A stretch of DNA of 61,579 nt, counting the filler. It is 9 parts of 9 records of this genome, joined end to end, with 100 filler letters (N's around TTAATTAATTAA, not from the genome) between each part and the next. Parts side by side here need not be neighbours in the genome. Positions count along the whole stretch, not along the records: positions 33,295 to 40,034 come from SRR7504441_380; 8 more parts are not named here. One strand, given 5' to 3'. The position numbers and the translations under genes were made by a program. The notes below the pieces were generated by a model. It searched no databases, had not been told where the DNA came from, and worked only from the letters and a program-made list of their open reading frames with translations. Within the stretch, counting starts at the first letter, position 1. The number at the start of each line of letters is the position of its first letter. Positions 14,269 through 55,845 of the stretch are shown here, piece by piece.

Positions 14269-14347
14269 CGTGGGTTACGGCGGTTTGTCCGTTGTAAAAC
14301 TGGGGTGAGGTGCGGAGAACCGAGAAGTGATGTCAGCGCGGCGGGGA

Positions 14348-33194: not shown

Positions 33195-33294
33195 NNNNNN
33201 NNNNNNNNNNNNNNNNNNNNNNNNNNNNNNNNNNNNNNTTAATTAATTAANNNNNNNNNNNNNNNNNNNNNNNNNNNNNNNNNNNNNNNNNNNN
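33195..33294. other. Artificial contig linker
   Basis: N44-TTAATTAATTAA-N44. Confidence 0.99.
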
Positions 33295-34257
33295 GTCGCC
33301 AGAGAAGGAGGTGGCATCTGGCTCGGCGCAGCAAGGACTGGCGGCACTGGCACGAGAGGCAAATGGTGATGCGACCGATGGTGTCATGGTAGTGGCAGAG
33401 GCTCGCTATCCGAGCCCCCCACGTGAGAGGGGCGCTGACTGGCGATCGAACTGGGCGATGCAACAGGCATCTCGGCGGAGAGCTCAGGAGGCGGCAGGGC
33501 TCGGCGCGACGGCTGATAGCGCAGAGAGGCAGCTGTGCGTCGCCACTGACGGGAGGAACCAAACAGTGGTGGTGCCCAGCAAGGCCCCGGCACAAGGCGC
33601 TGCTGGATCCATTGAGCTCGTTCTCGAGGAGCAAGACAAGTCACTCGGGCTGCAGCTGATCGCTATTTCGGCCGGGATTGGCGCCCAGGCGAGCCACGGG
33701 CGTGGGCCACTGGTGAGAGTCGAGGGCAGGTGAAGCGAGTGGCGCCAGGCTCGGTGGCCGAGGCGCGAGGCGTGCCGCCTGGGTTCGTGGTAACCAAGAT
33801 CGATGGCGAGCCGATGGGCGATCAGCCTCACTCCAAGATCATGTCTCGGCTGCGCGATTCGGTCCGACCCAAGAAGCTCGAGTTTAGGGCCAATGTGTCC
33901 ATTGTGAGCGTAACCGCGCTCAGCCAGCCCAATGCCTCCCCACCACCGGTTCAGGCAATCGAGAGCCCTCCGCTGCAAGATTCGCCGCCAGAATCGTCAG
34001 AGACCCCCAGATCGGACCTGACCGCTGGCCAATCAAGCGAACAGAAGGCGCAGGACACCGACCCGGCATTGATTGAGATATTAGATAGTGTGCCAAGGGA
34101 GCACGTGGATATGCTGCTAGATGATCCATCGCGGTTGCGGATGGTGCAATTCGACGAGGCGTATGGACCCGGATCAGCCAAATTGCTGGTGCGAGCTGAG
34201 CTTGCCCGCCATCGAAAGGCGAAAGCGGATGCAGATGCTAAGGATACCAGCAATTAA
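33295..34257 (+). CDS. PDZ-domain protein, 5' truncated
   Basis: KSLGLQL..GAQ-[41-nt GC-AG intron 33689-33729]-VKRVAPGSVAEARGVPPGFVVTKIDG..IMSRLRDSVRPKKLEFR. Confidence 0.78.
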
Positions 34258-34583
34258 TTAGGTATACGCTGATAGCAATTTGTTGGCATTTCGTAGAAGA
34301 TAAAATGGTTCTAAAATGAAATGGTTTATTGCGTATACTATGCGTATACATGCATGATTGTACCCGTACGCACACAATGTCATAGCCCACCATTGTCCGA
34401 GAGATAGCTTGACTTTAACTGAAAGCTGCTATCACCTAGCTAGTGTCAATCGAGTGAAGTAAGCTCGAGTAGTAGGTCAAGAGGTGACCTACATGTAGGG
34501 TAGCTATCAGACTCCTATTGAGCCTGGGTGGTGGGAAATTGATTACATGTCTGTACGTACACACACACTTCATGATCGATCTC

Positions 34584-37500
34584 TCAAACTGGCAAAACGG
34601 TGTCGATCGAGCCTGCACCGGCACACACCCCGCCTTCATCCGTCCCCTCGGTCTTGGTGCGGAACATCGACCCCGCGTGCGCATTCAATGCCACCTCGTG
34701 CTCTCGGACCACCATGATCGAAAAGATCCCCAGCTCGCCCACTTGCCTGCACAGCCCCGACGTCGCGACCCCACCCGTGCCCCTGATCACTGCACCCGGC
34801 AGCACGCGAGAGCAGTTGATCTTCTGCATCAGAACATACTGCGCCAGCTCCTCCGGCGAGGCCGTTGAGAGCATCTCACTAAGCTCGGGCCCATACAAGT
34901 TATTCCCACCGCCTTCTCGTTGCGGCTTGAGCACCCAATGCTCCGGGTGCAGCTTGGCATCCGCAAGCGCCGTGCTCACCAACTGACCGCCCGCTGACGG
35001 ATCCAGCTGGGTCGCGAATACAGAAAGCGCCCGCCGCGCGGCTTCCTTATCCAAGAAGCGGTCAAGTTCGGCCGGTTCGGATAAAACTTGCTGGATTCGT
35101 TTGGACCCAGCGAGCTGCATAGCCACCGACGGCACTTTGACTGCGCTGGAGAGCTCAATCAGAGCACGGTTCTGCCAGGCCTGCTCAGTCGAGTATTGCT
35201 CGGGCGAGAATCCGGTGTGGAAATAGACCACCGACACGTGATGGCTGCCCACAAACAGTCTACGCTGCTCGTCTCGGCTGAAGCTATCGAGAAGGCTGGC
35301 GCGACAGCACGGCACGCGCAGCTCGCTGAGGGCCGCCTCGATGTGCAACTGGTCCATCTCAAGGTGATCAGCTTCAAAGCACACAAAGCACACCTTGGGC
35401 TGCTCGCCCCCCGCACCGGCCTTGTAAGCCTGGTGTGCAGCGTGGATGGCGCGCGCAAAGCTCTTTGCAGGCTGGTTTGCCCGCAGGGTTGCTACAGAGC
35501 CCTTGAGCCCCGCAAGCTTTGGGTAGAATTTACTTAGAGCGTTCGCATGCAGCTGCGAGAGCTGTTCGGTCAGCCCAGCGAACGCTACCGCGATTGTATT
35601 CATTTCCACCTGCGCCCGAGTCGGTAAGCGCATTATCAATACAGGCCGCGCCTGAAGGTACTGGCCTGTCTCTGCCTCGAGGTAATCGTGTCTCATCAGG
35701 TGCAGCCGGATCGGCGGCTTGGCCTAGCACACTGGTGAGGCTAGATTGGCTAAGCCGTGCTCACAGGGTTGGATTGGTGCACTTGCTCGGCGATGTCCAT
35801 CAGCCTCGCAGTCCATGGATCGGCAGCTCGGACTTGCTGCAGCTTTTCTAATAACCACGGGACCTCACAGGACACTCGATCGAGCAGCCGGTTGAACAAA
35901 GGCGCCAGCTTCTGCACCGCTTCCAGCCGCGATCGGCACATTGGGAACGGGAGCGCTGCAATTGGGGCCAACTCTGGAGTGGCAGGGTACGATTGGCTCA
36001 TCACGACAAGCCCAAGCCTGTGGGCGTGAGTGACCAGCCAGCGGATCATCTCGTCATAGTGCGCCAGTCCATCCGGCCAAAGCAATGCACTCACTTGCAC
36101 CGGGCTGAGCGCAACTTTCAAGGCCGGGTCTGGGCCTGCTGGCTTGCTATTGCTGCTGGTAGCACTAGCCGAGCGAGTGCTGCCCATCGTCGGGCCCTTG
36201 GCGCCTTCGGGAAACAGCCAGCGGCGATTCACAGGCTTGCGCTTGCCTTGCTTGGCTTCCCAGGCGGCCAGTTGGTCAGGCGGAGGGAGCTGCCAACGGT
36301 CGACCTTTCCGCTGCTGGTACGTGGCCAGCTGTTGAGCCCAACTGTCTCGTGGGGCTGCATGAACTCAGGCAGCGAGCGGATCATCTCCAGCACGTCTTT
36401 CTGGGCGCTCTTGGGGCTTATATACAGGTGTATCTCGGGCTGATCTTGCGGGTTGGTCCTCACGAGCGCCACGGCCTCGCTGACGGACTCGACACTGCCT
36501 ATTGAGCTCTCCAGTGCACACAGGTCGAGCTTGTGGCCTCTCACCTGCAGATTGATTCACACCAGCAAGCTGGAATTGCACACCTCCACCTGATGAGAGA
36601 GCCGCCCCACGTACTCGAATTCGCCAGAGTCGAGCTGCCGGGCCTGGCACCCGCCCCAGTCAGCTGCTGCTGTGCAATATACGGACCAGATCGCCTGTAC
36701 GGTATACTCTGCACGGTTGCTCGGACCACGGCGCTATGATGAACCTGGATTCTGCCGCGGACTCAGCCCAAACCGCCAGCCGAGCCCACCGGTGAGCTCA
36801 GGGCTGTTGATGTATCCATTGCTGAGCTGGCTGCCTCCAATCAGCAGCTCACCAGCCGACCCAGGTGGTACGAGCTCCAGGCTCGTCGGATCGGCAACGT
36901 AGCACTGGACCCGCGGGAGCGGCCGGCCGATGGTCCGGAGCTCGAGCGGCGTGAAGTCGGCTGAGTTGAGCTCCTTGAATGTCGCGTCAAAGAACTCGGT
37001 CGCTCCGTAGATATTGAGCACTCGGACCTGACCCGACGCTTGATCGCGAGCCGGGCCGGGCGGCACCGATGCCGGAATATTCCGGACGGGCGACTCGGTG
37101 ACCGGCTCCCCGGTGAACCGGATGAATCCGAGAGTGGAGGGCACTTTGGCGGCTGTGCAAGCGGTTGAGCCCGGCCAGTGCGGTGGTTGCCTGCGATCTT
37201 GTTTGGCAGCGTCGAAACTACGTCTACAGGGGCGATTCTAAAAATGTCGGTGGTGAGCACGCAGGTGGCGCCCACGGAGAGCGGCATGTACAGGTCGGCC
37301 ACGTGCACGTCAAACGTGTAGTTATTAGAAAAGCACCACCTACCATCCGCTCGCATGCGGCCGACAGGTGGAGCACCGTTGGGCTTGCTCGATGCACATC
37401 CGGGCGCAGCTGGCGATGTTGCTGGCCACCCCGCCGTGCGGCATCAGCACGCCCTTGGGGGTGCCCGTGCTGCCCGAGGTGAAGATGACATACGCCAGGT

Positions 37501-38016
37501 CATCGGAGCAAGCCGCCGGGTCTCGGCATGGTGCCTCCAAATCAGCTAGCTGCCTGCAGCTATCCAGCCAAAGCACTTCGCCCGCAAATTCCATCTGTTC
37601 CACTGCCGGCCCCAGCGCCCGGTGCGAGACCAGCAGGTGGCTCCCGGCCTCGGCTAGGATGAACCGCTTCCGCTCGGTCGGCCAGCGCGGGTCCAGCGGC
37701 AAATAAGCCGCCCCGCAGGCCAACACGCCGAGCATGGCGACCGGCATCTCGAAGCACTTCTCGAAGAGCAGCGGCACGATCACCCCCCGCCCGGCCCCGC
37801 GCCTGCCCCGCCAACTGAGCCGGGCGGGCGGCCCGAGCACCGCTGTAGCCATCCCGCCACCGCCAGCCAGCTCTTCAAGGCCTGCTCGTAGCTCAGGCAG
37901 TCCTTCTTGTGCTCCAGCGCCGTTGCCAGCGGGATCCGGCCCGCCGTGAGCTCGACCAGCTGGTGCAAGCACCCAGTCTCGTCGTCCTCGGGCCCCGGCT
38001 CCTCGCACAGCGCCAT
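34584..38016 (-). CDS. NRPS-type adenylation domain fused to a eukaryotic glutathione-synthetase-like ATP-grasp ligase
   Basis: Nine 37-43 nt introns give A1 LSYEQ, A2 GAAYLPLDP, A3 LAYVIFTSGSTGTPKG, A4 FDV, A5 NIYGATE, A6 GELLIGGSQLSNGY, A7 YRTGDL, A8 GRLSHQVEVRGHKLDL, A10 PRTSSGKVDR; then, in the same exon, LAPLFNRLLDRVS, followed by RHDY, QVEMNTI, LAGSKRIQQ, VLKPQREGGGNN, ELGIF, RTK and EGGVCAG. Confidence 0.88.
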
Positions 38017-38075
38017 GTGACGTTCGAAGCGTCGGTCAGGACGGATCCCGGGCAGAGGGCGCGGACCGTCAGCTG

Positions 38076-39170
38076 ATGGCGGTCTGCCTGGTGGGCCCGC
38101 CGTTCCGCTGGCTGCTGCCAGACTGCCGGTGCTTCTTTACCGACAACTTGTACGTCAAGACAGCCGCCGGCCGCCCGATCGACGCCTACTTCCGGCTGCC
38201 CTCTCAGGACGTGTCCGACGATGCCTTCTGGGCCCTCAACCCACCTGACCCGGCCTGGCCGGCCCAGGCACGCCAGCAGATCCTGGACCAGGTCCGCGCC
38301 GAGAGCGGCCGCCGGTGGGAATTGCCGGAAACCTACCAGCGCAACGCGGACCGCATTGCACAGCGCTATGTCCCGCGGTGCCCCGAGCTGTTCAGACAGG
38401 CCGCGGGGCTGATCGGAGGGATGCCCGAGGAGTCCGTGTTCCGGGACGAGTTTTTAGAGGCCTGGCGGGCGGTCGCTGTAGGCCGGCTGTCGCTGCAGGC
38501 GCCCGAGCCGTTGAGGCTGGTCCACGCCGAGTGCTTTGAGCTGCCGTTGTTCCGGGAGGCGTTTGTGGAGCGGCTGGTGGAAGAGATCTCGGAGTTTAAA
38601 CGGCAGAAACTGGCGCACCAGTGGCCCAACAACATGAACAGAGCCGGGCTGATTCTGAACGAGATAGGGCTCGGGGGGCTGATGGATGAGCTGATTGGTA
38701 AATACATCGGGCCGGTGTGCGCGGCGCTCTACCCGAGGCTGCTGGGAGCCGGGTACGAGGCGCACCACTCGTTCGTGGTCTCGTACAGCATGGAGACCGA
38801 CCGGAGCCTGGGAGTGCACGATGACAACTCGGAGGTCACGGTCAACGTTGCGTTGACTGTTGATTACACTGGTGCGAAGCTGGCACTGTACCATCACGCC
38901 AGGGTGGCGCATCCGCAGCTGGAGGCTAAGGAGGCGTATCATTGGCGGGTGGAGCGGGCCGGGAACATGCTGCTGCACCCGGGCGAAATGCTTCACGAGG
39001 TGCTCCCGCTGCAGTCGGGAGACCGGATGGGACTGATCATCTGGCTTCGAAGTACGAGCTGGAGGCATGAGCACGGCTGCCCGCTGTGCCACAGCACCGA
39101 GGGGCTGCTGTATGAGAACGGCCCAGATGGCAAGGAGCGCCCGCGGGTCCCGATTACGGTGAACGACTAA
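38076..39170 (+). CDS. 2-oxoglutarate/Fe(II) dioxygenase, OGFOD2-like, intronless
   Basis: PNNMNRAGLILNEIG, HHSFVVSY, HxD in HDDNSEVTVNVAL, distal His in LHEV, Arg in GDRMGLIIWLRS, C-terminal CPLC. Confidence 0.88.
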   Translation: MAVCLVGPPFRWLLPDCRCFFTDNLYVKTAAGRPIDAYFRLPSQDVSDDAFWALNPPDPAWPAQARQQILDQVRAESGRRWELPETYQRNADRIAQRYVPRCPELFRQAAGLIGGMPEESVFRDEFLEAWRAVAVGRLSLQAPEPLRLVHAECFELPLFREAFVERLVEEISEFKRQKLAHQWPNNMNRAGLILNEIGLGGLMDELIGKYIGPVCAALYPRLLGAGYEAHHSFVVSYSMETDRSLGVHDDNSEVTVNVALTVDYTGAKLALYHHARVAHPQLEAKEAYHWRVERAGNMLLHPGEMLHEVLPLQSGDRMGLIIWLRSTSWRHEHGCPLCHSTEGLLYENGPDGKERPRVPITVND

Positions 39171-39587
39171 TTAATATAAATCCGATCTGCAGCTCCATGC
39201 CTTTCCAGAAATATTAAAATCAGTTCGAGTAGTATTAAATCGGCCTGTAACCTGTAACCTGTGTCTTTATTCATCCAAGGTTAGAAGCTTGCCTCCTCCA
39301 TTATTTATTGTAAGCATCCTCTAGGCCTCCTCCGCTACTCCGCACTGCACGATTGCATCCGTGCATCGAGGCGGTGGCATGTGCCCGTGGAGTCATGTAG
39401 TTCACACCTAGACCTTTGCGCGATGGTCTCGGAGACTACATACCGCCCCCAGAGAGTGCCAGTTGTCACACTAGTGCTCGCGCCATCCAAAGCTCTCCCG
39501 TCGCGTCAGGTTTTATCGGTTTTATTAGTGATCACAAAAATAGCTCATCTGCATCTGCGAGAAGGGCGGCAGTGTGCGAAGTGAGTG

Positions 39588-40034
39588 ATGACCTCCCGGT
39601 ACCGCAAGCCGTTCCAGTACCCGGCCGACTTCCCCGATGTGCTCCGCAACCTCACCCGCGAGGCACCCCGCCCCCCGCCGCCGAGCGCGAGCCGGCCAGC
39701 AGGTGCTGCGGGAGCAACCGCGGTCGATCCCCGACTTTTGCTGCCAGTACTTCGACAGCCTGGTCAAGAAGGTCGCCCGGGCCCGGCGGCAGCGGCCGGG
39801 AGCGCTGGGGCAGGCCGCGGAAGAGGCTACCCTCGAGCTCGGCGGCGCGGAGGAAGGGATCCGCCGCATGTCACCGGCGGACCTGCAGGAGTACTTGGCG
39901 TCGGTGCGGCCCAGCCCGGCTATAGCTAGCTGCGCCCGGGCTGGAGTGCGGTCCAGAGGGGTGAGGCGCGATGCAGGTGTTCCTGGAGGCCGACGTCGAT
40001 CAGACCGGCACTCTCAGCTACAGGGAATTCAAGT
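39588..40034 (+). CDS. RIIa-domain plus EF-hand protein (radial spoke RSP7-like), 3' truncated
   Basis: PADFPDVLRNLTRE-[40-nt GC-AG intron 39663-39702]-VLREQPRSIPDFCCQYF; intron 39904-39976, then FLEADVDQTGTLSYREF. Confidence 0.82.
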
Positions 40035-40274: not shown

Positions 40275-43200
40275 CTAGGTAGCAAGACTGAGTTGCGGTG
40301 CTTTGTCTAGAGAAGGGAAGGAAGTCAGCTCCATCCCCTCTTTCCGTATTTTGACTAGGTCACTGATGGATTTAGACACAGCCTTAGCTGCTTGTGCACG
40401 GTCTGCCTCTTTCTGCATTGCATCGAGTTGCTTGGCGGCTTTCGCTAGCACCTTGTGCGATTTCTTTGTGAAGTCCTGTGCCTTCGCAAGAGCAGGCGTC
40501 AAATCCTCTTTCAGATTGACCTCTGCTTCCCCCTTCTTCAGTTTGATTGCACTTGCTTCGTCCGCCTGCTGCCGAGCCTTTGACTCAGCCATGCTAAAGC
40601 TGTGACGTGCATGTATGGCAGAAGCGCGGGCTTCCTCAGCCCTTTGCTGCCTACTGTCGAGCACTTTGCTGGCATCGTGGACCGCGTCTTTCTGATCCGA
40701 TAATGCCTTGTTGTGCGCATCTATCTCAGTTGTTATCTGTGCCAGCTTTGCTTGCTGTGCCTGCAATTCAGCTTGGGATGACTTGACTGCGCTCCGTTGA
40801 GCACGCACCCCTCCCTCTACTGTATCGACAGATTCCTGAGATTTGCCCTTCAGCTCGGTGATCTCCTGGTGTACGACAGCCACTTCGCCCATTGAGGTGT
40901 CGAACATACTCTGAGCTCTAGTCACAGCACCTTCATCTTGCTGCAGGCTTTCTGCCTTGCCTGATAATTGTGCTCTATCTTCCTGTGCCCCCTCCACAAG
41001 CTGACTGATGCTATCTACTAGCATCTTAGATTTGTTGATTCCTTCCTCGGCTTCACTCTTCTTACTCTCAGCAACATCGACATCGCGCCTGGCATCTTTT
41101 GCGGCCTCCGTGTCTTTTCTCAACAGTGCTTTCCTGGCCTCAGCACTCGTCTTCCTAGCCACCTCCTCTTTCGTGACAGCTTTAGTCGCTGCACTCAGAG
41201 TTGCTTCTGCCCCAGCCAAGGTTTCCTTTGCTTTCTTCTCAGCCTGTTCTGCAACATGGATTCGAGTTTGTGTTTCTCCTATAGAATGCTTTGCATCTGA
41301 AAGCTGCTGCCTAAGCCTCGGGATCTCGTCAGCCAGCCGCTCAACGCGCCCCTTGGCTGATGCAGTCTTTGCCTCTGCTGGCCCGACGAGAGCACTGGCC
41401 TTCTCAAACGTCTCAGACGCACTTGTGCGCGCATTGCTTGTTGCCTGTTCCTTCTCCACAGCGGTAGCCACTGCTTTGCCTGCAATGGTTACTGTGCGCT
41501 GGAGCGGTAAGAGCCTTTTGGCCACTTCTTCTTGTTTTTGCTTCAGTGCGGCCCTGGCAGCCTCTACGGCTTGCTGCTGCCGCCAAAGCAATACCTCTGA
41601 CTTCTCAACGACCTTAGCAGCGCTGTCACTTGCTTCCTCGAGCGTCTCTAACTTCTTGGTCGCAGTAGACACAGACTGCTCTCTTTTGGCAGTCTTACTT
41701 GCTGCTTGACTAGCCTTATCTGCTGCTGCAGATTTACTATGCCGAGCTTCATCTAGCGCAGCACGTTCATCTTTCACCCGTGCTCTGGCAGCTTTCTGGG
41801 CGTGCTCACCCTTCTCGATAACCTGGAGCTGATCTGTGTGCTTTTCAGCTGCTTGCTGACTAGATTCTTTGGCCTCCTTCAGCGCCTCACGGCTTAACAC
41901 AACTTCTTGTTGAGCTTGTTTCTCTGCCCTGGTGGCGCTTCCCTGTTGTCGCAGCGCGTCCTGCCACTTTTTATCACTAGCCTTCAGGTCTTCTGTATAT
42001 TTCTGGAGCTGTTTCTCATGATTGCTGATCGCTGATTTAAGTTTCCATGTGTCCTGGTTGAGTTGCTCCTCATGTTTCTTCCTCAGATCTACATCCTGCA
42101 CGCTCTCACCCAAAAGTGTCTTTGCTTTGGCTAAAAGCTTCTGCAACTCTTGAGCCCGATCGTTTGCAATGTCAACCTCCGATTGCTCTTTTGCCACACT
42201 CTGCTTCACCCTCTGTGCAGCAAGAATGTCCAATTTGGTCTTCCGTTGTTGTTGTTCAAACTCCAACTGTGTCGCCAAAGCGAATCGCTTAGCTGACTTC
42301 AGCTCTGTGTAGGCTCCCTCTGTCCGCTGTTTTGCATTGCTCACAGCCTTGACTACGTCCGCTTCAGCAGCGTTCACCTCCTGGATTCCAGACTCCAAAT
42401 TCTTAGCTCGATCAGCCGCTTTCTTGGCCCTGAGCTGAGCTTTGCTCTCAGTTCGGGCTGCTTTCTTGAGCTCAGACGCTGCTGCTCTCTTTAACTTGAC
42501 GACCTGAGCACCCTTCGCTTCCTCAGCAGCGACACGGTTCTTTGCATCGATGAGTTCATGCTCAGGACCCCTCATCTCAGCAGCTATGTCGCTGGACTCT
42601 TCCTGCAGCTTCTTCACATCGGTCGAGGCTTTGGTGACCGCTTCCCTGGATTTTTGGACCTTTTCTTTGTCTTGATCGAGCACGTTCTCGGCTTCCTTTT
42701 GTTCAAGGACTTTTTTGTTGATCTTATCCTCGAGGTCGGCATTCTCTGCCTTATTCGCGTTAGCCCGCTTCGACGCGGCCCGAACGCTTGCAGCGAGCTG
42801 ATCAGTCCTATCTTTGAGCTTCTCAGATGCATCACTTTCCAGCTCAGTGTTGGCGCCCTCCGCTTCGGACATGTATGCTTTGCTCTGAGCCTCAAGCTCT
42901 TCATCCGTTGCTTTCTTGATTGCCTCCTGCCACAGGGCCCGCTGGCTTTTGTAGGCGTTCTCTGCATTCAGCAACTCATCTTCACTGTCCATGACCTTTT
43001 CTCGTGCTGCTTGGTACGCAGCGGCGGCAGAAACCTCGTCAGCAGTTTCCTCGGGCGGGGGATTCTCTGCTAGCTGAAGCAAGCACGGAGTATTTTCGTC
43101 GTCGCATTTGACCTGTGCTTCGGCCTCCCGCTGTGAGGCATCAGCTTCCACTCCATCGGCTCGAGAGTCTGCTGACATCTTGGCTGTTTCAAGCATCTCT

Positions 43201-46200
43201 TCTGTCTCTGCATCTGCAGCGGCTTTCATGATAGCTACTTGGTCTTTAATCGACCGAGCCTTCGCCTCAGCTTCCATTTTTGCACCACGAGAAATTTCGG
43301 CGGATGCTACGTGCGCTGAATCCCGGACCTCGTTTATAAACTCTCGAAGTGTACTCGACGCTTCCTTTGATGTAGCACCTGCTGCATGGGTCTTTGCGTG
43401 CTGACTTTGTTCAAATGCCGCCAGTGTCTTTTCAGCTTCAATAGCAGCATTTTTGCGGCTGTCTGCTGCAGCTTTTATTGCATCCTGCACCATGTCGCCA
43501 GCTCTTGTTCTGGCCTTGTCTATCCGAGCTGCTCGACCACTAGACTTTAAGGCATGGTAGGTGACAATCAGGGCCTTGTTTTGGGCTCTGACTGCCGCTC
43601 TTGCATCTTGCAGCTTGCGCCAGGTTCGGAGCAGCGCCCTTTGGTCGGCATCCAACTGCTGCTTAACTTGTGCTGCATGCTTGTTTGCCTTCTTTGCGTC
43701 TACAGAGGCTGAATCCGCCTGTGCCTTGCTTGCCACAGCATCGTTCTGTGCCTTTGCACCCTGCGCGTCCAAACCCATCATCTCCTCCTTCTGTTTAGTG
43801 ATAGTTTCAAACTGCTTGGCCAACTTGGCTGCTGCCAACTGATGTTGATACTGTGTCTTCCGAAGCTCTGTGCTAGAGCGCCTGAATTCAAGTCTTGCCT
43901 TGTTTTCGGTGTCCTCTGCCAGGCTTTTGGCCTCTAGAGCAGTACCCAGCAGCCTTTGAGCATTCTGAAGAATGGTATTTGCAGCAGCCAGCTTCTTTCG
44001 CCGCTTTGCCAGCTGATTCTTTTTGGAGGCAAGGTCAGCATTTGCTTGGGTGGCTGGAGAGTTTGGACTCTTCATAGCCGAGATTGTTTTGTCAAAATCT
44101 GCAAGCTCTGACTTGACAGACTCCTTCAACACTGCGCTTTGCTGTTCCTTGCGCTGCGCCTGGCGTTGGCCTGTTCTGGCTGCTTCCAAGTCAAGGCGCA
44201 TACCATAGAGCTTTTCAGTTTGCTCAGTCATGTGGGTGGTAGCTGCATCTTTATCTGCTACAGCTTTTTTCACAGCTGCTTTTGCCTTGTCGACTTCTTG
44301 ATTGTCTGTTTTCAGAGTCTGCCCAGTGGCCTGCTCAGATGTCTTGGACTTTTTGACTGTGGCTTCCGCCACTGCCATCTGGTTCTTCCAAGATCTCAAT
44401 TCTGCTCTGTCCTGCTCCTCACGCTTGTCTGCAGCTTCTTTAGCTTCTTCTGCATCAGCCACAGCACCTTTCCTCAGGGCTACCTTCATGTCTGCAGCTC
44501 GGAAAGCGCCGCTGGCATCAGCTAACTGCGCTTTTAAATCTTGGAGGCCTGTGGAGGAGTCTGAAATCTTAGCTTCCACCTTCGCAACCTTCTCTGAAAT
44601 CTGATCCTGCTGTGACTTGATCGTGCTGGTCTTCTCACTGGCCTCTTCCTTCTCCTCCGTGGCAGCTTCAAGCTCCTTCTCCTCTGCCTGCAGCGTTTTA
44701 GCAGCAGCATCTGCTTCTGCTTGCAGCCTTTCGAACACCATCATCAGCTTGCTGGCAATGTTTCGGGCACCAGCCACCTGCTCGTCTGCATATTGAACTT
44801 TTCCCTGCGCTGCCAGCCAAGCGGCATTCCGAACACCCACTGTCCTTGCAGCTTCATTAGCCTTGGCTTTCATATCGCTCTGATGGGCTTGGGCATCGCT
44901 CAGCAGCTCCTCCTGCTTCTGTACTTTCTCACTACCTCCATGTACCAAATGCTGTGCAGCCGCTAGTTTCTGCTTCTTATCGTCTACATTGAGCTGAGCT
45001 GCCTTTTCCTCGTCCTTGGCATCTGCGACAAGACCCTTCATTCTCCGTATCTCTTCATTACCTGCATTCTCAGCCTGAGAATGAGCCATCTTGCTCTTTT
45101 GATGCTGCTTTTTGGCTGCCTGAACTTGCGAAACTGCAGCAGCATGCACCTCCATTGCATCGTCCAGCTTTCTCTGAGCCTCAGCCATTGCTTCCTTCAA
45201 CCTGTGTTCCTCAGCGTCAGACGAGGCTAGATCATCTTGAGCAGATTTCTCCTCCTTCTCTTTTTCTTCAAGCTGTTTCTCGAATGAGGTCACTTCCGTC
45301 ATGGTCGGTGCAAGCCGCTCCTTGAGCTCCACCAGATGGTCTTGTGCCGCCTTCAGGGCCTCCGCTGCCTCCGATTTTTTGCTCTTGGCACTCAGCTTCT
45401 GGCTGCGCAAGCCTGCCAGCTGCTGGGCATGCACCTCGTCCTCGGCCTGTGCTTCTCTCTTGTTCTGAGCCGCCCTGCCTCGGACGGCTTTGAGCTCTCC
45501 TTGCTCTGTGGCCACATCAGCTGTAAGCTCCTCGAGGTTGAGCTCTTGCTGATCCCTCGCATTCTTGGCTTTCTCTAGAGAGCTTCCCAGCTGTATCACT
45601 GTCTTGGCAGAGAATGCGCCATCTCTCTTGATGGCTGCCACTTCCTTGAGCAGCTTTTTTGCGTCATCGCCTACCGCCTTGTCCTGTAGCTCATCCTTGA
45701 GTAGCTGCACGTTGGAATGATGCTTGTGCACATTGAGCACCTCGGACTGGGCGTTAGTCAGCCACTCCTGCACCTTTGCCAAGCGCTGGTTCTCATCAGC
45801 AACAGACAATTTCTGTTGTTGGATCTGGTCACTGGTTGCAGCCCTCGCAGCTTGTCGCGCTCGCTGCTTTGGGTCCTGCTCCATACTGCGCAGATCTTCT
45901 TGCGCTTGAGTAAAGGTTGCCTCAGCCGTGGTCACATTCGCATCTGCATGAGCTGCAGTATGTTTTGCTTTGCGCCAGGCTGTTTCAGCCTGTGCCTCGT
46001 CTTGCTTGCTGGCAGTGGCTTTTGAGAGAGCTTCCTTGCTCTCCTGTGAGAGGTTGATCACGTCCCTCTTCCCTTTCTCCTCTCTGGCTTCTGCAACCAC
46101 AACACTGCCTTTGGCAGTCTTGTGTTTCTGATCAGCGAAATGGTGGCTAATCCGCGCCAGCGCCAGTGCTTGCTGCTGGGCTGCGAGCTCGCCACGCACT

Positions 46201-48271
46201 TGCTTCTCTGCGTCTTTGACGTATTGTGAGAGTGCAGCATCCTCGTCGACAGACACCTGGAGCGCGCTGAAGCCCCAGCTGCCAGACTGCTTGACCGCAT
46301 CTGCAAACAGCTCAAAGCTTGAGAAGCCCCACCAGGCATCAGGACTGGCAATGTCGGATCCGAACTCGACCACGACCTCCGCGGCTGTGTGCGGCCGTGT
46401 CACACCGAAGTCCTTGTAGCAGGTGATCGCTGCGCCAGAGTCATACAGCTTGCTCGGTGCAGTGGCCGTGTCATTGGCTTTGCTCATCGAGGGAGCTTCT
46501 TTCACACCCCGGCTGCTCTGTCCTTGCACAGAGTCCGAATTGCGCAACGGGGCACCAACGAATTGCTTGAAATCCCCGCACGAGGCCACCGTGGTCTCCG
46601 ACTCAGTTGCCCACCAGGTCTCCGACTTCCCATCCTCCCCACGCACGCGGAGCCAGATCGACTGCTTGGCCCAGCTGCCAACCGCCCACACCCGGCCGTG
46701 GATCTGGAGCTTTGAATGCTCCGGGAGTGCTAGCTTCGTGTGCACTTGTCTGGGCGCGCCGCCCGGCCAGAGCCCGTGGAGCAGCCCTTTGCTGCTCTCC
46801 AGGTGGCGAGGATCGCTCCAACTGTCGGGGTCAGTGTCTCGCCCCTGCAGCAGCATCGGCGGCCCACCTGGTATCTGCTCGACTGCAACAGATATCTGCA
46901 CGATCTGCTGGTTATGCGCCCGTCGGATCTTGAGATCGTCAAAGCAGCTCGGCTGGTCGCTCAGCATCCCGCCGGTGTAGTTGGCCCAAGGGGCCTTGCA
47001 GCCCGTCTGGTCTATTCCTAGCGCACTGGACCACCACTCGGCCCCATCGACCTTGACTATGATCTTGCGCCCGGGGCAGGCCCCGACCGCCCAGGCCCGG
47101 AGCTTGAGCCCCAGGTGCACGTGCGGCGGAAGCTCAAAGCTCGAGCTCACCTGCTTCGGATCGCACGACCAGAGCCCACGGACCAGGGCTGGCCCGGCCT
47201 GGAGCGCGTTGTTGTCACTCCAGCTGTGCGCCGCGCTGTCGGACGCCCATTCGGCCATCTCCGAGGTCGGGGCCGTGGTCGGGGGCGGCGTCGGCTCCTT
47301 GGTCGGCGCCATCGTCGGGGCAGAGGTCGGCGTGATCGGCCTAGCCTCGAGCACAAGCTCGTTCAGCACGAAGCCCCCCTTGGCCGAGTCGGTCCGGTGC
47401 ACCGTCAGCTGCACCGCCGCCACCTGCGCCCGGTTAGCCCGTTGGCCGGCCGTTCGACTCACCGAGCGCACTGGCTCAAACTCTATTTGTGTCAACCCAC
47501 TCGACGAGTCGGTCTGCACCCGATCCCCGTGCACCACTCTGTACGCGAGCTTGTCGGCGCCCCGCAGCCGGAGCCCGCGCGGCGGGACCAGCGTGCCGTT
47601 GCGCAGCTTGAGCCGGATCTCGACGTCCTGGACGTGATGGTCTTGCTCGCCCACACCGCTCACCAGGGCCACTGAGATTAACTCGGCCGGGGCGGTCGGC
47701 TCGAGCTCGAACTCGGCGGTGACCGGCAGCGGCTTGGCGGAGATCCATCCGTTGTCCTTGGCATCGTCGACCTGGTCGAACGCCTGCTGGCAATGGTACT
47801 CCCGGCTGCCTCCGCCCTTCACTTCGCACTTGCTGATCTTGAGCACTTGCACCGCTGCCCCCGCATCGGCCCAGGCCGCCCAGCCGGCACACCGCTGCGC
47901 CGCGCCGCGTCCGATCGGAGCAGGTCTTCGAGGAAGCTCCTTGTCTTGGTGTCCGGTGCCGCCACGGGCCGCTTCGCTTTCGGCTTGGCTTCCGTCTCCG
48001 GCGGCGGCTTTGTTTTCGCACTCTCCGCCGCACTGGCCGGTGCCTGGCCGGCCGCCTCGCCCACCGGCCCCGAGCCAACTCGCGGCTGGCCGCCCAGCGG
48101 GGCGAGTGGCCGCCTGGGCAGGCGGGCGGGCTGGTACAAGGGCTGGACGTCGGCGGCTAGTTTGGCGAACAGCGAGTCGCCGGTCCCGACCAGCTCGACC
48201 CCCGACTCCTCCCCGCCCAGGCAGCAGCCCAAGAGCAGCACAACCGCTGCCCACCGCAGCCGGCTGCGCAT
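40275..48271 (-). CDS. Giant secreted protein (about 2650 aa): signal peptide, discoidin/galactose-binding-like domain, PT linker, two beta domains, about 1950-aa coiled coil
   Basis: MRSRLRWAAVVLLLGCCLG; a 38-nt intron near 47855-47892 joins the long ORF; AFD..DNGW..VLNELVL; PTSAPTMAPTKEPT; A/K/E/Q-rich heptads to the C-terminus; no TM anchor. Confidence 0.8.
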
Positions 48272-48470
48272 GTTTTTTTGCTTGGAAGAAGTCCAACGAC
48301 GACGTATTATTATTTCGCAGGCTCAGTCCAGGGCAGCGATGCGTCCGCGATGATGGCAATGACATGCCACGACCGGTGGGGAGCCGAGTATTGGCCGCGG
48401 TGCAAGAAGTCAAGGGAGGAGTTGAACGAGTACGAGGAGCGCGCGAAGGAGGTGGTGTAGTTTCTGACGG

Positions 48471-48570
48471 NNNNNNNNNNNNNNNNNNNNNNNNNNNNNN
48501 NNNNNNNNNNNNNNTTAATTAATTAANNNNNNNNNNNNNNNNNNNNNNNNNNNNNNNNNNNNNNNNNNNN
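48471..48570. other. Artificial contig linker
   Basis: N44-TTAATTAATTAA-N44. Confidence 0.99.
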
Positions 48571-52495: not shown

Positions 52496-53821
52496 CTACA
52501 TGGGCGCGAGGTACGGCATTGTAAATGAACTGGGCGTGGTATGTGGGATGCTGTGTGCCATGCTTGGTGGTGTCGCCCGGATTGTCGTGCCGGCGTACGG
52601 CGTAACTAATACTGTGGGGGGTGGCTGGGTCTTCGAAGGCTGTATCCCTTGGACCACCGGCACCGGCGGGTACCCGGGCAGCGAGTATGGCACCGTGGGC
52701 ACCTGAGTAGAGTAGTTCCAGGCGCCTTGAGGAGGCTCGACCCGCCTCTGCACCGGCAGCGCCGCAAGCTGCACCATAGCCTGCGGAGGCACCACGCGCG
52801 GCGCGGCCTGAGGCGCACCGGCCTGAGCCTCGAAAGACTGCCCGCTGGGCATGCTCGGGGCAGGGCTCACTCTGCGGGGCGCCGGACGCCTGATCAGCAT
52901 ATGTGCAGGCATTGGCACTTGCTGCATCCCGGTCTGCGCCATGGTGATCTCCGGCCGTCTATCCCTGGGGTCCAGAGACCTGGGCTTGGGTCCCGGTTTC
53001 TTTAGGATAGCCCTCTGTACCGGGCATGCAGCACTCGCCATTTGCCTTTGGGCTCGGAGCCTCCTTTCCTGCCTGACCACTTCGTTCAGCTCGCGGACCA
53101 GCATCTGCCGCTTCTCCTTGATGGCCTGCTGCTGGGCCTCATAGCCGCATCGCGCCCGGTCGGCCAGGCTCTGGCTCGGGCGTTGGCCAGCTAATCCAGC
53201 TTGATCCTCAGGTGGCGGCATGTGCGAGGCCACCTCGGCCACCTGCTTCAGCGCCTTGAGGAAGTCCTGGCTCTGCGCCAGCTCTAGCCCTTGGTCCAGC
53301 TCGCCCGCCGGTTGGGAGATCGGGCTGCTGGCCCCGGGTGGTGCGACCATCTCCCGTCCACCGTCGGAGGTCAGGACCGGCACGGCCCGAGGAACAGAGT
53401 CCAGTGTCACCGGGCCCTGTTCCTCGCCGCGCATTCTGGACTTGACCACTTGCTGGAGCCGCTGGACCACTTGCTCGCCGGTCGGATCCTCCACCGCATT
53501 GTCCGGGACCACGGCCTCGTCGATCCCGATCCGCCGGCACAGTAGGGCCTTCTTCTTCATGTTCATCTTGAGCCGGCGGGCCGGCCAGCGCTTGATTCCG
53601 CATGCGCGGCATATCCGCTTGAAGATGGTCTTGCACACCCCGAACTGCTCGGAGGCCTCGATCAGGGTGAGGTGGAAGTATCGCTCAAGCACCGCCCGGT
53701 CCACCCGCAGCGGGCGCGAGCCGTCAACGTGGACCGTCCGCTCGCCGCTGAACTCGAGGTCCGTCCCGGCGTAGTCCACGTGCGGCTGGTATGCCGGGCC
53801 CTCTCGCGGGTGGCTTGGCAT
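52496..53821 (-). CDS. RWP-RK domain transcription factor
   Basis: LERYFHLTLIEASEQFGVCKTIFKRICRACGIKRWPARRL; P/Q-rich C-terminus. Confidence 0.92.
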   Translation of the reverse strand: MPSHPREGPAYQPHVDYAGTDLEFSGERTVHVDGSRPLRVDRAVLERYFHLTLIEASEQFGVCKTIFKRICRACGIKRWPARRLKMNMKKKALLCRRIGIDEAVVPDNAVEDPTGEQVVQRLQQVVKSRMRGEEQGPVTLDSVPRAVPVLTSDGGREMVAPPGASSPISQPAGELDQGLELAQSQDFLKALKQVAEVASHMPPPEDQAGLAGQRPSQSLADRARCGYEAQQQAIKEKRQMLVRELNEVVRQERRLRAQRQMASAACPVQRAILKKPGPKPRSLDPRDRRPEITMAQTGMQQVPMPAHMLIRRPAPRRVSPAPSMPSGQSFEAQAGAPQAAPRVVPPQAMVQLAALPVQRRVEPPQGAWNYSTQVPTVPYSLPGYPPVPVVQGIQPSKTQPPPTVLVTPYAGTTIRATPPSMAHSIPHTTPSSFTMPYLAPM

Positions 53822-54267
53822 CAGCGAGCGCGGGGGCCAATTGGCTCCCAAGGTTGCGAGGGGTTACGGGCAACGGCATCCTCAACGTCGGCCTTCCTCA
53901 GCCCACAAATCAGGCCGTTGTGCCCGGATTTTCTTTTAATTTCCTTTTTTGCGCCTCTGATTCTTGACCCTGCCTTTGACGCGTATGTGTATCCTGGCAC
54001 CTGCGGTCCACTGCAGCTTCGCATGCACCTCCCTTTGCACCTGGCACCTCAATGTGTGTGTGGTCGCCGGAGACACCGCGGTTGCGCGGTCTCACATGCA
54101 CCAGAGATGAATGATCTCTGTTGTGACTATGCGATCGGCGCTCAATTGGTTATCAGTTTATTGTTGATCGTTAGGTGCGCGAATCATTCTTATCGTTGAA
54201 ACGCATTAATGGTTTACAGTGTCACCGCCGCGGGATGTCAAGAGACCGACGTGGGCTAGCGGTGATC

Positions 54268-55815
54268 TCACCGGGTGTCGGCGAGCAGCTTAGTCGGGTA
54301 GAAGAAGATTCGGTTGCCTTCCCAACGGATCGTAACCACGCCCAAGTACCCGCACCGGGGCACCCCGGACTTGGAATCTTCCATCAGCCCGTGCGACGCC
54401 GCAAATTGCTCGTACTCGCGTAGCTTGCTGTAACCTATCCGATAATCCTGCCCGTCGCCAGGACCGGCCCGGCGGATCGGCGCCAGGCTGGATACTAGCT
54501 GCGCCGCGCGCAGATCCGCGAGCAGCTTCTGGTCGTACAGCTCTTTCCCGAGATAACTCAAGTCGGCTGCGGCCCAGTCCACCCTCTGGTTATTGACCTT
54601 GATGCTCCCAATGTGCTCCTTGAAGAATTCGCCTCCGGACGAGCCCCTCTCTCCAAAGTTGCCAGTGCGAGACACTTCGGGTCGGATGGTCACCCTGCCC
54701 TTGCGCTGGGCCGGCAGCCTGAGCCAATCGTCCCAGAATCCCAACGGCCACTTGTGCTCTAACTCCCTCCAGATCGCCCCGCTGGTCCCCCAGCCAAGCC
54801 CAGGGAAATAGTCGGATCGGTACAGCAGCTCGGGGTCAGATACAAACTTGGCCTGGCCATTGTCATTCCAGGAGGAGACCGCCCAGACTGTTGGGTCCTT
54901 GTCCAGCAACGGCAAACTTGCCTCGAAGAATTCGAAAAAGTCTACCGCCAGGTTCATGTCATCCTCCAGAAACACAATGTACCGGTGACCACGTCGCTCT
55001 ATCACTTGGGTAAAGGCGAACCGATAGTGGCTGGCGATGTAGTAGTAGATCGGGCTGCCGCCCTGCGGGGTGCCTATGTTGCTCGGCCGAGAGTGCACTA
55101 TCAGCTCGAACTGGGGGAAGCCCGTGCACGCCTGGGCGACCTGCCTGTTGGACCCGTCCTGCGATATGAACACCTTCACGTTCGGCCGATCACGCAGCCG
55201 ATTCTGGACCGACTCGAGCGTTCGCTTCAGGTAATCCGGCCGGTTGTAGGACATGACCACAACCGCGAATTCCGTAGCACCCCCAGCCGGCGGCGGCGGC
55301 ACCGCCACTGGTGGTGGCACCGCCACCGCCACCGGCCGCTCAGTTGGCTGAGGGGTGGGCTTGGCGGTCGGCTGGCGGGTGGGGCTCTGCGTCGGACTCG
55401 GGCTCGGCGCCCGGGTCCGTTTGGCCGCCGGCGGGTGCGGCGCGGCCGGTGGCTTGACCGGCTCCTCCCAATGCGACTCCCGCCGCTCGCTCGGCGGCAG
55501 TTCGTTGCCTCGGGCCGGGGGCGGATGCGGTGGACGGTTGGGCTTAGGAGCCGCCCGCTTGGGCGCCGGCTGCTCGGGCCGTTGGGAGAGCGGCTGTGGC
55601 GGCTGGCCGACCCATTCGGGTTTGGCCCTCTCGAGCATGTCCAAGGCCTTGCTCAGCTCGGCCTCCATGCGCTGGTATTCGCGGCCGGTGGCCTGTCGGC
55701 AGACGTGCCCCCCGATGGCCAGCAGCAGCAGCGCCGCCCCCGCCAGCACCAGCGCCAGCCGGCCTGGGTGAGAAAGCAGCAGAGTCCGCCAGCGCTTCCC
55801 GAGCACTTCGCCCAT
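54268..55815 (-). CDS. MGAT1: Alpha-1,3-mannosyl-glycoprotein 2-beta-N-acetylglucosaminyltransferase I (GT13)
   Basis: Type II TM, Pro-rich stem, YNRPDYL, ISQDG, YYYIASHY, EDD, SSWNDNG, RSDYFPGLGW, FWDDWLR, RPEVSRT. Confidence 0.95.
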   Translation of the reverse strand: MGEVLGKRWRTLLLSHPGRLALVLAGAALLLLAIGGHVCRQATGREYQRMEAELSKALDMLERAKPEWVGQPPQPLSQRPEQPAPKRAAPKPNRPPHPPPARGNELPPSERRESHWEEPVKPPAAPHPPAAKRTRAPSPSPTQSPTRQPTAKPTPQPTERPVAVAVPPPVAVPPPPAGGATEFAVVVMSYNRPDYLKRTLESVQNRLRDRPNVKVFISQDGSNRQVAQACTGFPQFELIVHSRPSNIGTPQGGSPIYYYIASHYRFAFTQVIERRGHRYIVFLEDDMNLAVDFFEFFEASLPLLDKDPTVWAVSSWNDNGQAKFVSDPELLYRSDYFPGLGWGTSGAIWRELEHKWPLGFWDDWLRLPAQRKGRVTIRPEVSRTGNFGERGSSGGEFFKEHIGSIKVNNQRVDWAAADLSYLGKELYDQKLLADLRAAQLVSSLAPIRRAGPGDGQDYRIGYSKLREYEQFAASHGLMEDSKSGVPRCGYLGVVTIRWEGNRIFFYPTKLLADTR

Positions 55816-55845
55816 TCTCCCGCAGCGCAGCTGCAGCAGCAGTTG

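Follow-up and report, generated by a model that had tools for sequence, protein, structure and literature searches.

A carrier-less fusion of an adenylation domain with a glutathione-synthetase-like ATP-grasp domain: a candidate two-step peptide ligase beside an OGFOD2-like oxygenase gene

Introduction

What might be made by a polypeptide that joins an adenylation (A) domain of the nonribosomal peptide synthetase (NRPS) type to an ATP-grasp domain of the eukaryotic glutathione synthetase (GSS) fold, with no carrier domain between the two? The question is raised by a minus-strand gene in a stretch of DNA of 61,579 nt (hereafter, the window), which consists of nine parts joined by fillers of 100 N's. 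The fusion gene and its divergent neighbour, which encodes an OGFOD2-like 2-oxoglutarate (2OG)/Fe(II) oxygenase, both lie within positions 33,295–40,034 (SRR7504441_380).

A model's earlier reading of the same DNA (the original prediction) had proposed that the A domain forms a first amide bond directly from the adenylate and hands the product to the ATP-grasp domain, giving a glutathione-like product. Here, we examine the two domains, their junction, their relatives, and their genomic surroundings. The reading that we favour is that of a two-step, carrier-independent ligase that would build an alpha-linked tripeptide to be oxidised by the OGFOD2-like enzyme; we put the probability of this reading at roughly 0.45. 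The product would probably be a tripeptide other than glutathione.

The GSS-like domain and canonical glutathione synthetases

The ATP-grasp part of the gene matches PF03917 (206.4 bits) and PF03199 (69.1 bits) at positions 34584–35723, and its best solved relative is human GSS (2hgs, 8e-52). We compared residues in an alignment of the window model, 12 family members (introduced below), and 17 canonical GSS from animals, fungi, oomycetes, plants, red algae, amoebozoa, and bacteria, with human numbering carried over via a 474-aa hamster sequence. Residues E144, N146, K305, K364, E368, G369–371, E425, R450, K452, and R125 are kept in the window and throughout the alignment.

The residues around the gamma-glutamyl moiety are replaced. 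According to the accessible part of the report on the Trypanosoma brucei GSS structure, this moiety is held by R267 (through a salt bridge), S151, E214, and N216, which are called ‘strictly conserved’; the carbonyl and amide of the cysteine are held by R125 and S149, and the glycine carboxylate by R450 (PMC2845819). The roles of R267, Y270, E214, N216, and Q220 agree with those given in the available portion of a 2026 preprint (bioRxiv 10.64898/2026.06.09.730884). In the window, R267, S151, E214, and N216 are replaced by H, A, D, and L, respectively. Position 267, an arginine in 17/17 canonical sequences, is histidine in all 13 family sequences; position 216, an asparagine in 17/17 canonical sequences, is leucine in 12 family sequences and phenylalanine in the thirteenth; and position 214, a glutamate in 15 of the 17 canonical sequences, is aspartate in 13/13. 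Serine, found at positions 151 and 149 of 13/17 and 7/17 canonical sequences, respectively, is replaced at both by alanine in the 11 of 11 family sequences that have the residue. In the A-loop, A462 (alanine in 12/17 canonical sequences, cysteine in 0/17) is cysteine in 13/13 family sequences, and Y270 is phenylalanine in 4/13.

The homologs that were scored against the equivalog model TIGR01986 (P0127, 242.3 bits; P0167, 285.3 bits; P0170, 185.1 bits) all fall below its cut-off of 329.8. A FastTree phylogeny of 29 rows, from which P0286 was left out as too short, recovers the family of 12 as monophyletic (local support 1.0, stem 0.49) and apart from the 17 canonical GSS. The family has two branches, one with the window and its sister group of P0283, P0284, and P0285, the other with the dinoflagellate-type proteins. 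The window's GSS exon is 46–47% identical to P0283–P0285 (E 3e-89 to 9e-81); the next matches start only at E 2e-52, and most full-length canonical GSS rows share 33–38% identity with it.

Taken with the residue roles in GSS structures, these replacements indicate a domain in which the ATP-grasp chemistry and the amino-acid carboxylate site are apparently intact and the gamma-glutamyl site is rebuilt. Because the gamma-glutamyl-binding residues are replaced across the family and the family forms its own clade, the GSS-like domain is a distinct paralogue and very probably makes no glutathione. The glutathione-like product of the original prediction is thus doubtful: R267, E214, and N216 are replaced in every family sequence and S151 in every one covering it, the TIGR01986 scores of homologs are below the cut-off, and the clade is separate.

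The adenylation domain

In the minus-strand ORF (open reading frame) pieces, PF00501 matches the first part of the gene with 100.5 bits (37340–38035) and 46.9 bits (36734–37237), against a gathering score of 29.9; the homologs reach 192–204 bits. The spliced model can be read through all ten core motifs (usual forms A3 SGSTGxPKG, A7 YRTGD, A8 GR, and A10 Lys, with the A4 Asp as the mark of an alpha-amino substrate): LSYEQAL, AAYLPLDP, TSGSTGTPKG, FDVHV (A4), and NIYGATE for A1–A5, and GELLIGG, YRTGDL, GR..HQV / RGHKLDL (A8), LPEFMQP, and SSGKVDR for A6–A10, with the A10 lysine at model residue 493. The best relatives of homolog P0009 in the PDB are NRPS A domains, namely LgrA (7e-119), McyA, ApnA, TycA, and 1amu (3.8e-67), and the best NCBIfam model of the homologs is that of amino-acid adenylation domains, TIGR01733 (301.9 and 289.7 bits, just under the cut-off of 317.4).

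The predicted, motif-anchored specificity code of the window A domain is DVATRTIDAK. The pattern DVAT[A/I/V]TID[A/V]K is found in P0009, P0120, P0127, P0166, and P0167; P0168 has Y at 278 and M at 299 with the same last five residues, TIDAK, and its two A4 positions are unreadable. The conservation of this code among proteins that are 42–50% identical overall speaks for a single, defined alpha-amino-acid substrate of the family's A domain.

The junction and the absence of a carrier

The homology-guided model gives a spliced coding sequence (CDS) of 3117 nt and a product of 1038 aa, which is 42.5–49.5% identical to seven homologs over 594–999 aligned columns (MAFFT); homologous proteins cover positions 37983–34587 of the window (tblastn). 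The two domains meet in a stop-free ORF (Table 1), in which PF03917 positions 7–102 match residues 170–263 (42.1 bits), in frame downstream of A8–A10. About 90 residues lie between the A10 lysine and the first GSS-aligned residues. This linker begins with a basic motif, K..R.RW[LMI]F.[DE], present in 7/7 linkers compared as well as in P0283, and continues as a Ser/Thr/Ala/Pro-rich stretch. As a minor point, a predicted structure of P0009, of low overall confidence, has a predicted local distance difference test (pLDDT) score below 50 across the matching linker (623–667) and no secondary structure at 613–651.

Searches with Pfam found only PF00501, PF03917, and PF03199 in the pieces of the fusion gene. 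The phosphopantetheine-binding (PP-binding) family PF00550 has no match in the eight fusion-gene ORF pieces at E ≤ 0.01, and neither condensation (PF00668) nor thioesterase (PF00975) domains were found in the window pieces at that threshold or in the fused homologs. A regular expression for the GGxS-type core of a peptidyl carrier protein (PCP) found none after A10 in 8/8 family proteins and recovered LGGHSL in 5/5 NRPS controls.

The architecture described in the original prediction is therefore sound in its main parts. A full A domain with the A4 aspartate (FDV) is borne out by the PF00501 matches and by FDVHV in the spliced model, and a complete eukaryotic GSS fold by PF03917, PF03199, and the preserved ATP, Mg, and G-loop residues. 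A10 and the GSS N-terminus do share one stop-free exon (exon 7), the linker indeed has no GGxS site, and condensation and thioesterase domains are absent as claimed.

Relatives with the same fusion

The junction exon was searched by exhaustive HMMER against 1.84 billion representatives, and the best 150 proteins were considered. All except three are multi-module proteins of 4186–7864 aa (147 of the best 150) that align with the A-domain part only, from query residues 2–4 to 91–157. The three exceptions, P0009 (1149 aa), P0120 (1415 aa), and P0127 (1610 aa), align to query residues 3–260 in one stretch, and each has PF00501, PF13193, PF03917, and PF03199 and no PF00550. A second search found PF00501 with PF03917 in 6 of the 120 matches listed and added the fused proteins P0166, P0167, and P0168, so the combination that the original prediction had suggested looking for (AMP-binding plus GSH_synth_ATP without PP-binding) does occur, and its fusion architecture is shared by six other proteins, among them transcripts of dinoflagellates and gene models of Effrenium voratum. 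The same search yielded two forms without an A domain, P0169 (GSS-like plus OGFOD2-like) and P0170 (GSS-like plus PSTK/KTI12-like). Ordinary NRPS with PF00668, PF00550, and PF00501 made up 112 of the 120 matches listed, and PF00550 was present in none of the 8 PF03917 rows among them. When the junction exon was used in a word-based search for longer homologs, two NRPS matches only were returned; the fused relatives surfaced only in the exhaustive HMMER search.

These proteins come from several kinds of record. P0009 was assembled with Trinity from transcripts of Polykrikos kofoidii. UniRef gives the name ‘glutathione synthase’ to P0127 and its ten cluster mates, all of them gene models of Effrenium voratum. 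P0120 and P0283 are Trinity ORFs from EukProt, P0170 is a transcript from MMETSP, and the remaining homologs stem from metagenomes or Logan. The transcript ORF P0283 is truncated at its 5' end: it begins inside the A domain and covers A9, A10, the linker, and the GSS-like domain in full, with 46% identity to the junction exon over 245 aa that include the first part of the linker. In this closest known relative of the window, the junction is transcribed as one message, and because the P0283 transcript spans the same junction, it is very unlikely that the fusion is an assembly chimera or two genes read as one. The window gene is marked as a member of the family by the joining of A10 to the GSS N-terminus within a single polypeptide and by the H267/L216/D214/C462 signature. 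The A-domain/GSS-like architecture is that of a conserved, uncharacterised family, represented so far by dinoflagellates and a few marine eukaryote records.

Sequence reads place the gene in the sea. Marine metagenomes and a single oligo-dT RNA run gave matches with shares of ≤0.10, and metagenome contigs show 0 differences to parts of the gene at 35197–35442, 35451–35601, and 35492–35642. Contigs identical or nearly identical to gene parts were also found at 37600–37750 and 37871–38006 (marine or estuary metagenomes and one oligo-dT RNA library). Because identical or near-identical contigs occur in marine runs, the organism or a close strain is present in sea water at low coverage. Two metagenome scans were made for relatives of the family: the first returned none, and the second returned 80 loci, all of them canonical-type GSS with 30–44% identity.

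The OGFOD2-like neighbour and other fused domains

The gene that faces the fusion gene head-to-head (Table 1) matches the OGFOD2-like domain PF25238 with 61.5 bits against a gathering score of 31, and its look-alikes in the Atlas are OGFOD2 clusters of Streptophyta and Chordata (0.97–0.98). An HxD...H...R pattern is visible in its protein. OGFOD2-like domains are fused at the C-termini of P0120, P0127, and P0169, which match the neighbour gene with tblastn E values of 2e-77, 2e-94, and 3e-86, respectively; identity to the C-terminal domain of Effrenium P0127 is 48% over 360 aa. Because the OGFOD2-like gene adjoins the fusion gene here and is fused to its relatives elsewhere, the same activities would be carried by one polypeptide in some species and by a divergent gene pair in the window, which is a Rosetta-stone link together with a gene-order link. 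We judge this neighbour, which is absent from the original prediction, to be the strongest clue from context. As a negative control, A-domain, OGFOD2-like, and PSTK-like matches were sought at the 80 canonical-GSS metagenome loci with flanks of up to 8 kb and were found at 0/80. A predicted complex of the GSS-like part (as two exon chains) with the OGFOD2-like protein scored 0.00, which speaks neither for nor against an interaction.

The function of OGFOD2 is stated to be unknown, and its sister enzyme OGFOD1 hydroxylates the ribosomal protein RPS23, according to the accessible part of one report (PMC10083964).

Some dinoflagellate members of the family contain an inserted P-loop kinase domain (P0127, ~1005–1130; P0167; P0170, 440–647). 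In P0170, this domain matches the L-seryl-tRNA(Sec) kinase model TIGR03575 at 2.4e-22, with 79.7 bits that are far below the cut-off of 382, and it is also matched by PF08433 (KTI12) and PF13671. No PSTK-like gene was found in the window by tblastn.

Gene model and remainder of the window

Coordinates are collected in Table 1. The span 34584–38016 of the original prediction runs exactly from stop codon to ATG; its nine micro-introns become eight in the homology-guided model. To place them, GT/GC..AG segments were listed between ORF pieces, and at each junction the one that restored homolog length was picked. Six of the eight introns are GT-AG and two are GC-AG; all are 37–43 nt long, with 49–82% GC. 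Restoring the frame needs the removal of seven of them, and excision of the remaining in-frame, stop-free intron 8 gives YLQVE(M/I)N, which is contiguous in 7/7 homologs. Seven of the eight exon junctions are gap-free within ±5 residues in the alignment to seven homologs, and the seventh junction falls in a length-variable stretch. A branch-like CT[CGT]A[ACGT] stands 10–20 nt before the AG in 7/8 introns, as judged by eye rather than by an enrichment statistic. Neither the adjoining OGFOD2-like gene nor the 1259-aa SF3b1 ORF (313–4092) has introns, as against the eight of the fusion gene. We considered and rejected the intron type of the Mamiellales outlier chromosome (BOC1), whose introns are, in the accessible part of the source, 40–65 bp long, AT-rich, and without splice motifs (PMC3491373); the lengths, base composition, and GT/GC-AG ends found here do not fit it.

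Table 1. Features of the fusion gene and its divergent neighbour, in window coordinates.
Feature	Position	Strand	Remarks
Whole CDS, A-domain/GSS-like fusion gene	34584..38016	-	ATG at 38016, stop at 34586-34584; 9 exons
NRPS-type A domain	36296..38016	-	model aa 1-496; motifs A1-A10, A4 Asp and A10 Lys present
Stop-free junction ORF	35750..36556	-	holds exon 7 (36544-35765): A8b-A9-A10, linker, GSS N-terminus
Linker	36029..36304	-	model aa ~494-585, between A10 Lys and GSS-like fold
Eukaryotic GSS-fold ATP-grasp domain (GSS-like)	34584..36049	-	PF03917, PF03199, 2hgs 8e-52, residue comparison
Intron 1	37803..37840	-	38 nt, GT-AG
Intron 2	37340..37376	-	37 nt, GT-AG
Intron 3	37153..37190	-	38 nt, GC-AG; no GT donor preserves the conserved LPNKIA/AKVP residues
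Intron 4	36752..36789	-	38 nt, GT-AG
Intron 5	36644..36686	-	43 nt, GT-AG
Intron 6	36545..36583	-	39 nt, GT-AG
Intron 7	35724..35764	-	41 nt, GT-AG; length-variable region, borders least certain of the eight
Intron 8	35610..35651	-	42 nt, GC-AG, in frame, stop-free
Spacer between divergent start codons	38017..38075		59 nt
OGFOD2-like 2OG/Fe(II) oxygenase gene	38076..39170	+	364 aa, single ORF, divergently transcribed

Apart from the OGFOD2-like gene, no biosynthetic family was found in the 29 neighbouring ORFs searched with Pfam; their matches are to SF3b1, PDZ-like, GHL15, RWP-RK, GNT-I, ankyrin/FYVE, kinase, GTPase, AAA_2, HEAT, and EF-hand. Pfam searches of 37 window ORF pieces and ORFs revealed no carrier gene, and Rfam found no RNA family in the window. 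On the strength of the ORFs for SF3b1 (313–4092, minus strand), RWP-RK (52496–53863, minus strand), and a GNT-I glycosyltransferase (54268–56490, minus strand), the window is evidently from the nuclear genome of a eukaryote. The run of N's at about 33251–33295, some 1.3 kb downstream of the fusion-gene stop, coincides with the filler between joined parts.

Two further observations concern other genes. Positions 40275–48518 (minus strand) form a stop-free ORF of 2747 aa without a Pfam match, in a region with a strong AT skew of -0.31 to -0.36, a lowered GC content of 0.49–0.53, and one short 12-nt tandem array only. At 14309–16909 (plus strand), two long ORFs in the same frame, the second of which matches AAA_2 (Cdc48-subfamily AAA), are split by a single TGA (15269–15271), which could be either part of a small intron in frame or the real end of a gene.

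Weighing the explanations

Both ligase domains look catalytically competent, their nucleotide-binding and catalytic residues being kept, and since the architecture is conserved and carrier-less, a two-step ligase would be the most economical reading of the gene. The A domain would adenylate an alpha-amino acid X to X-AMP, as suggested by the A4 Asp, the A10 Lys, and the conserved code DVAT-x-TID-A/V-K. A second amino acid, Y, would then attack X-AMP directly, either by its amine or, in the case of cysteine, by its thiol with a subsequent S-to-N shift, giving alpha-linked X-Y; such direct transfer is suggested because no carrier is present, and we infer that the amide would form from the adenylate itself. 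The GSS-like domain would phosphorylate the C-terminal carboxylate of X-Y and add a glycine-like Z, whose carboxylate would be held by R450. Loss of R267 would fit an alpha-linked X that has no free alpha-carboxylate. Finally, the OGFOD2-like enzyme would oxidise the product or a precursor. An engineered system in which an ANL enzyme and an ATP-grasp ligase act in tandem on a cysteine dipeptide is described in the accessible part of PMC13338154.

Several points weigh against this proposal. S149 and S151 are the weaker discriminators among the replaced residues, as the canonical-type bacterial sequence P0369 has alanine at both. The ten specificity positions were read by motif anchoring, with definitions that follow GrsA numbering, rather than by alignment to 1AMU, and the resulting code is not known to match any substrate. 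The AlphaFold model of P0009, made from a 13-row alignment, has a mean pLDDT of 64 and a predicted template modelling (pTM) score of 0.47. At the locus itself, four runs gave short contigs only, none of which crosses the junction or an intron, a result that is neutral as to splicing and the fusion; the read check of 36000–36300 suggested in the original prediction was answered by the P0283 transcript and not by reads at the locus. Lastly, the PSTK-like domain of some homologs and the activity of OGFOD1 on a ribosomal protein hint at a macromolecular substrate.

This last hint leads to the main rival, which we regard as unlikely: an enzyme that ligates amino acids on a tRNA- or protein-bound substrate, with the oxygenase and the kinase acting on the same macromolecule. 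Its analogues would be ATP-grasp ligases that extend protein C-termini and enzymes that act on aminoacyl-tRNA, and besides the kinase domain of P0170 and the hydroxylation of RPS23 by OGFOD1 it could appeal to the conserved basic motif of the linker. A weak lead in the same direction came from the Atlas, where a search with P0169 gave sub-threshold matches (0.77–0.78, the best at 0.78 being below the 0.9 mark) to bacterial fusions of 2OG oxygenases with ATP-grasp domains of the RimK/TTL type, which represent an analogous ligase–oxygenase pairing and not evidence of kinship. In these bacterial clusters, the RimK-type PF08443 is found in 100% of members, PF13640 in 62%, and the TTL type in 30%. 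NRPS-type A domains are known for small-molecule chemistry, however, and the PSTK-like match is far short of its cut-off (79.7 against 382), and no PSTK-like gene was found in the window; moreover, the family keeps R125 and R450, which bind groups of a small peptide in GSS (PMC2845819, accessible part). Thiotemplate chemistry in trans, with the A domain loading a separate carrier or CoA and the GSS-like domain acting on the released product, seems to us rather improbable. Stand-alone A domains that serve separate carriers do exist, and proteins of the DltA type occur among the relatives in PDB and NCBIfam. A carrier domain, however, was found in 0/8 family proteins tested and no carrier gene among the window ORF pieces and ORFs searched, and the fusion variants have gained oxygenase and kinase domains, never a carrier.

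A genuine synthetase of glutathione or a close analogue, with the A domain in place of glutamate–cysteine ligase (GCL), would agree with the complete GSS fold, with the retained ATP, Mg, and G-loop residues and R125 and R450, and with the UniRef name of the Effrenium homolog. We consider it quite improbable in view of the replaced gamma-glutamyl residues, the TIGR01986 scores, and the separate clade with its long stem; in addition, an A domain with the A4 Asp activates the alpha-carboxylate, not the gamma-carboxylate of glutamate. Far less probable still is an artefact, be it an assembly chimera, a frameshifted pseudogene, or two adjacent genes read as one. The draft state of the window, with N's near 33251–33295, and the lack of an RNA read across the junction could be taken to suggest it, but each of the seven frame changes is repaired by a GT/GC-AG segment of 37–43 nt that restores homolog length, the junction lies within one stop-free exon, the fusion recurs in transcriptomes and genomes obtained independently, and metagenome contigs match parts of the gene without a difference. 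Mycosporine-like amino-acid biosynthesis, a pathway that also combines an ATP-grasp enzyme, an NRPS-like enzyme, and a 2OG oxygenase, was considered and rejected: Pfam found no DHQS-like or O-methyltransferase gene among the 29 window ORFs searched, and the ATP-grasp domain here is of the GSS type.

Implications

The two-step ligase may be part of something broader. There is a substantial chance that the fusion family marks an undescribed pathway. More tentatively, one may picture a conserved eukaryotic pathway in which a carrier-independent A domain, a re-tooled ligase of the GSS fold, an OGFOD2 oxygenase, and (in certain lineages) a PSTK-like kinase would share one substrate, the product being a new hydroxylated (perhaps also phosphorylated) peptide or a peptide-modified tRNA or protein. 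If so, OGFOD2, an orphan among the 2OG oxygenases that is conserved in plants and animals, including humans, would for the first time be given a functional context, and the fusion and gene-order link in any case supplies a testable functional lead for that enzyme. The ligase would also be an instance of natural nonribosomal peptide assembly in a eukaryote by a single chain that contains an A domain and an ATP-grasp domain and lacks carrier, condensation, and release domains, a minimal ‘two-ligase’ logic that would be of interest for biocatalysis.

The domain families themselves are known, and their combination is present in public protein sets under the wrong name. We found no published description of the A-domain/GSS-like architecture, although the domain tables in supplements of dinoflagellate genome papers might mention the fusion; this agrees with the original prediction, which knew of no description of it. 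The proteins were already in databases, as with the Effrenium voratum ‘glutathione synthase’. Dinoflagellate ‘glutathione synthase’ names thus cover a distinct paralogue, which matters for reconstructions of redox metabolism in Symbiodiniaceae and other protists.

Comparison with known systems

The GSS-like domain shares with eukaryotic GSS/GSH2 (2HGS) the same circularly arranged ATP-grasp fold and the same E144, N146, K305, K364, E368, GGG loop, E425, R450, K452, and R125. It differs in its identity of only ~33–38%, in the replacements R267H, N216L, E214D, S151A, and A462C, in its position behind an A domain, and in its separate clade. A precedent is offered by the nematode GS-like effectors (5OEU, 5OET), which are eukaryotic GSS paralogues of diversified biochemical activity according to the accessible part of PMC5919673 and are among the PDB relatives at 1.7e-23 and 7.9e-12, weaker matches than canonical GSS; those effectors, however, belong to another lineage and are secreted, single-domain proteins without an A domain.

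The A domain has the A1–A10 motifs, the A4 Asp, and the A10 Lys of NRPS A domains such as GrsA-PheA (1AMU), LgrA, and TycA. Unlike these, it and its family have no PCP, condensation, or thioesterase domain in cis, and the TIGR01733 scores of homologs are just under the cut-off. Its A5 motif is YGATE against the usual YGPTE, and its A8 lacks the usual Asp and Lys. The neighbouring gene resembles the OGFOD2 of animals and plants both in PF25238 and in its Atlas clusters (0.97–0.98); in the part of the OGFOD2 literature examined, we found no link to a GSS-like or A-domain enzyme and no study of what OGFOD2 does.

As a whole, the fusion resembles GshF/GshAB in that two ATP-dependent ligase activities, and a tripeptide product, are proposed for one chain. 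GshF joins a GCL domain to an ATP-grasp domain of the D-Ala-D-Ala-ligase type; the window protein has no N-terminal GCL domain, and its first module is an ANL enzyme. Carrier-independent ANL amide-bond synthetases are known, as are A domains that acylate free cysteine with a subsequent S-to-N shift. It is by analogy with these that we propose the capture of the adenylate by a free nucleophile without a carrier. Such systems are separate bacterial enzymes or engineered cascades, among them the engineered combination of carrier-independent ANL and ATP-grasp enzymes in a route to N-acyl dipeptides (PMC13338154, accessible part), whereas the two activities proposed here would reside in one natural eukaryotic polypeptide.

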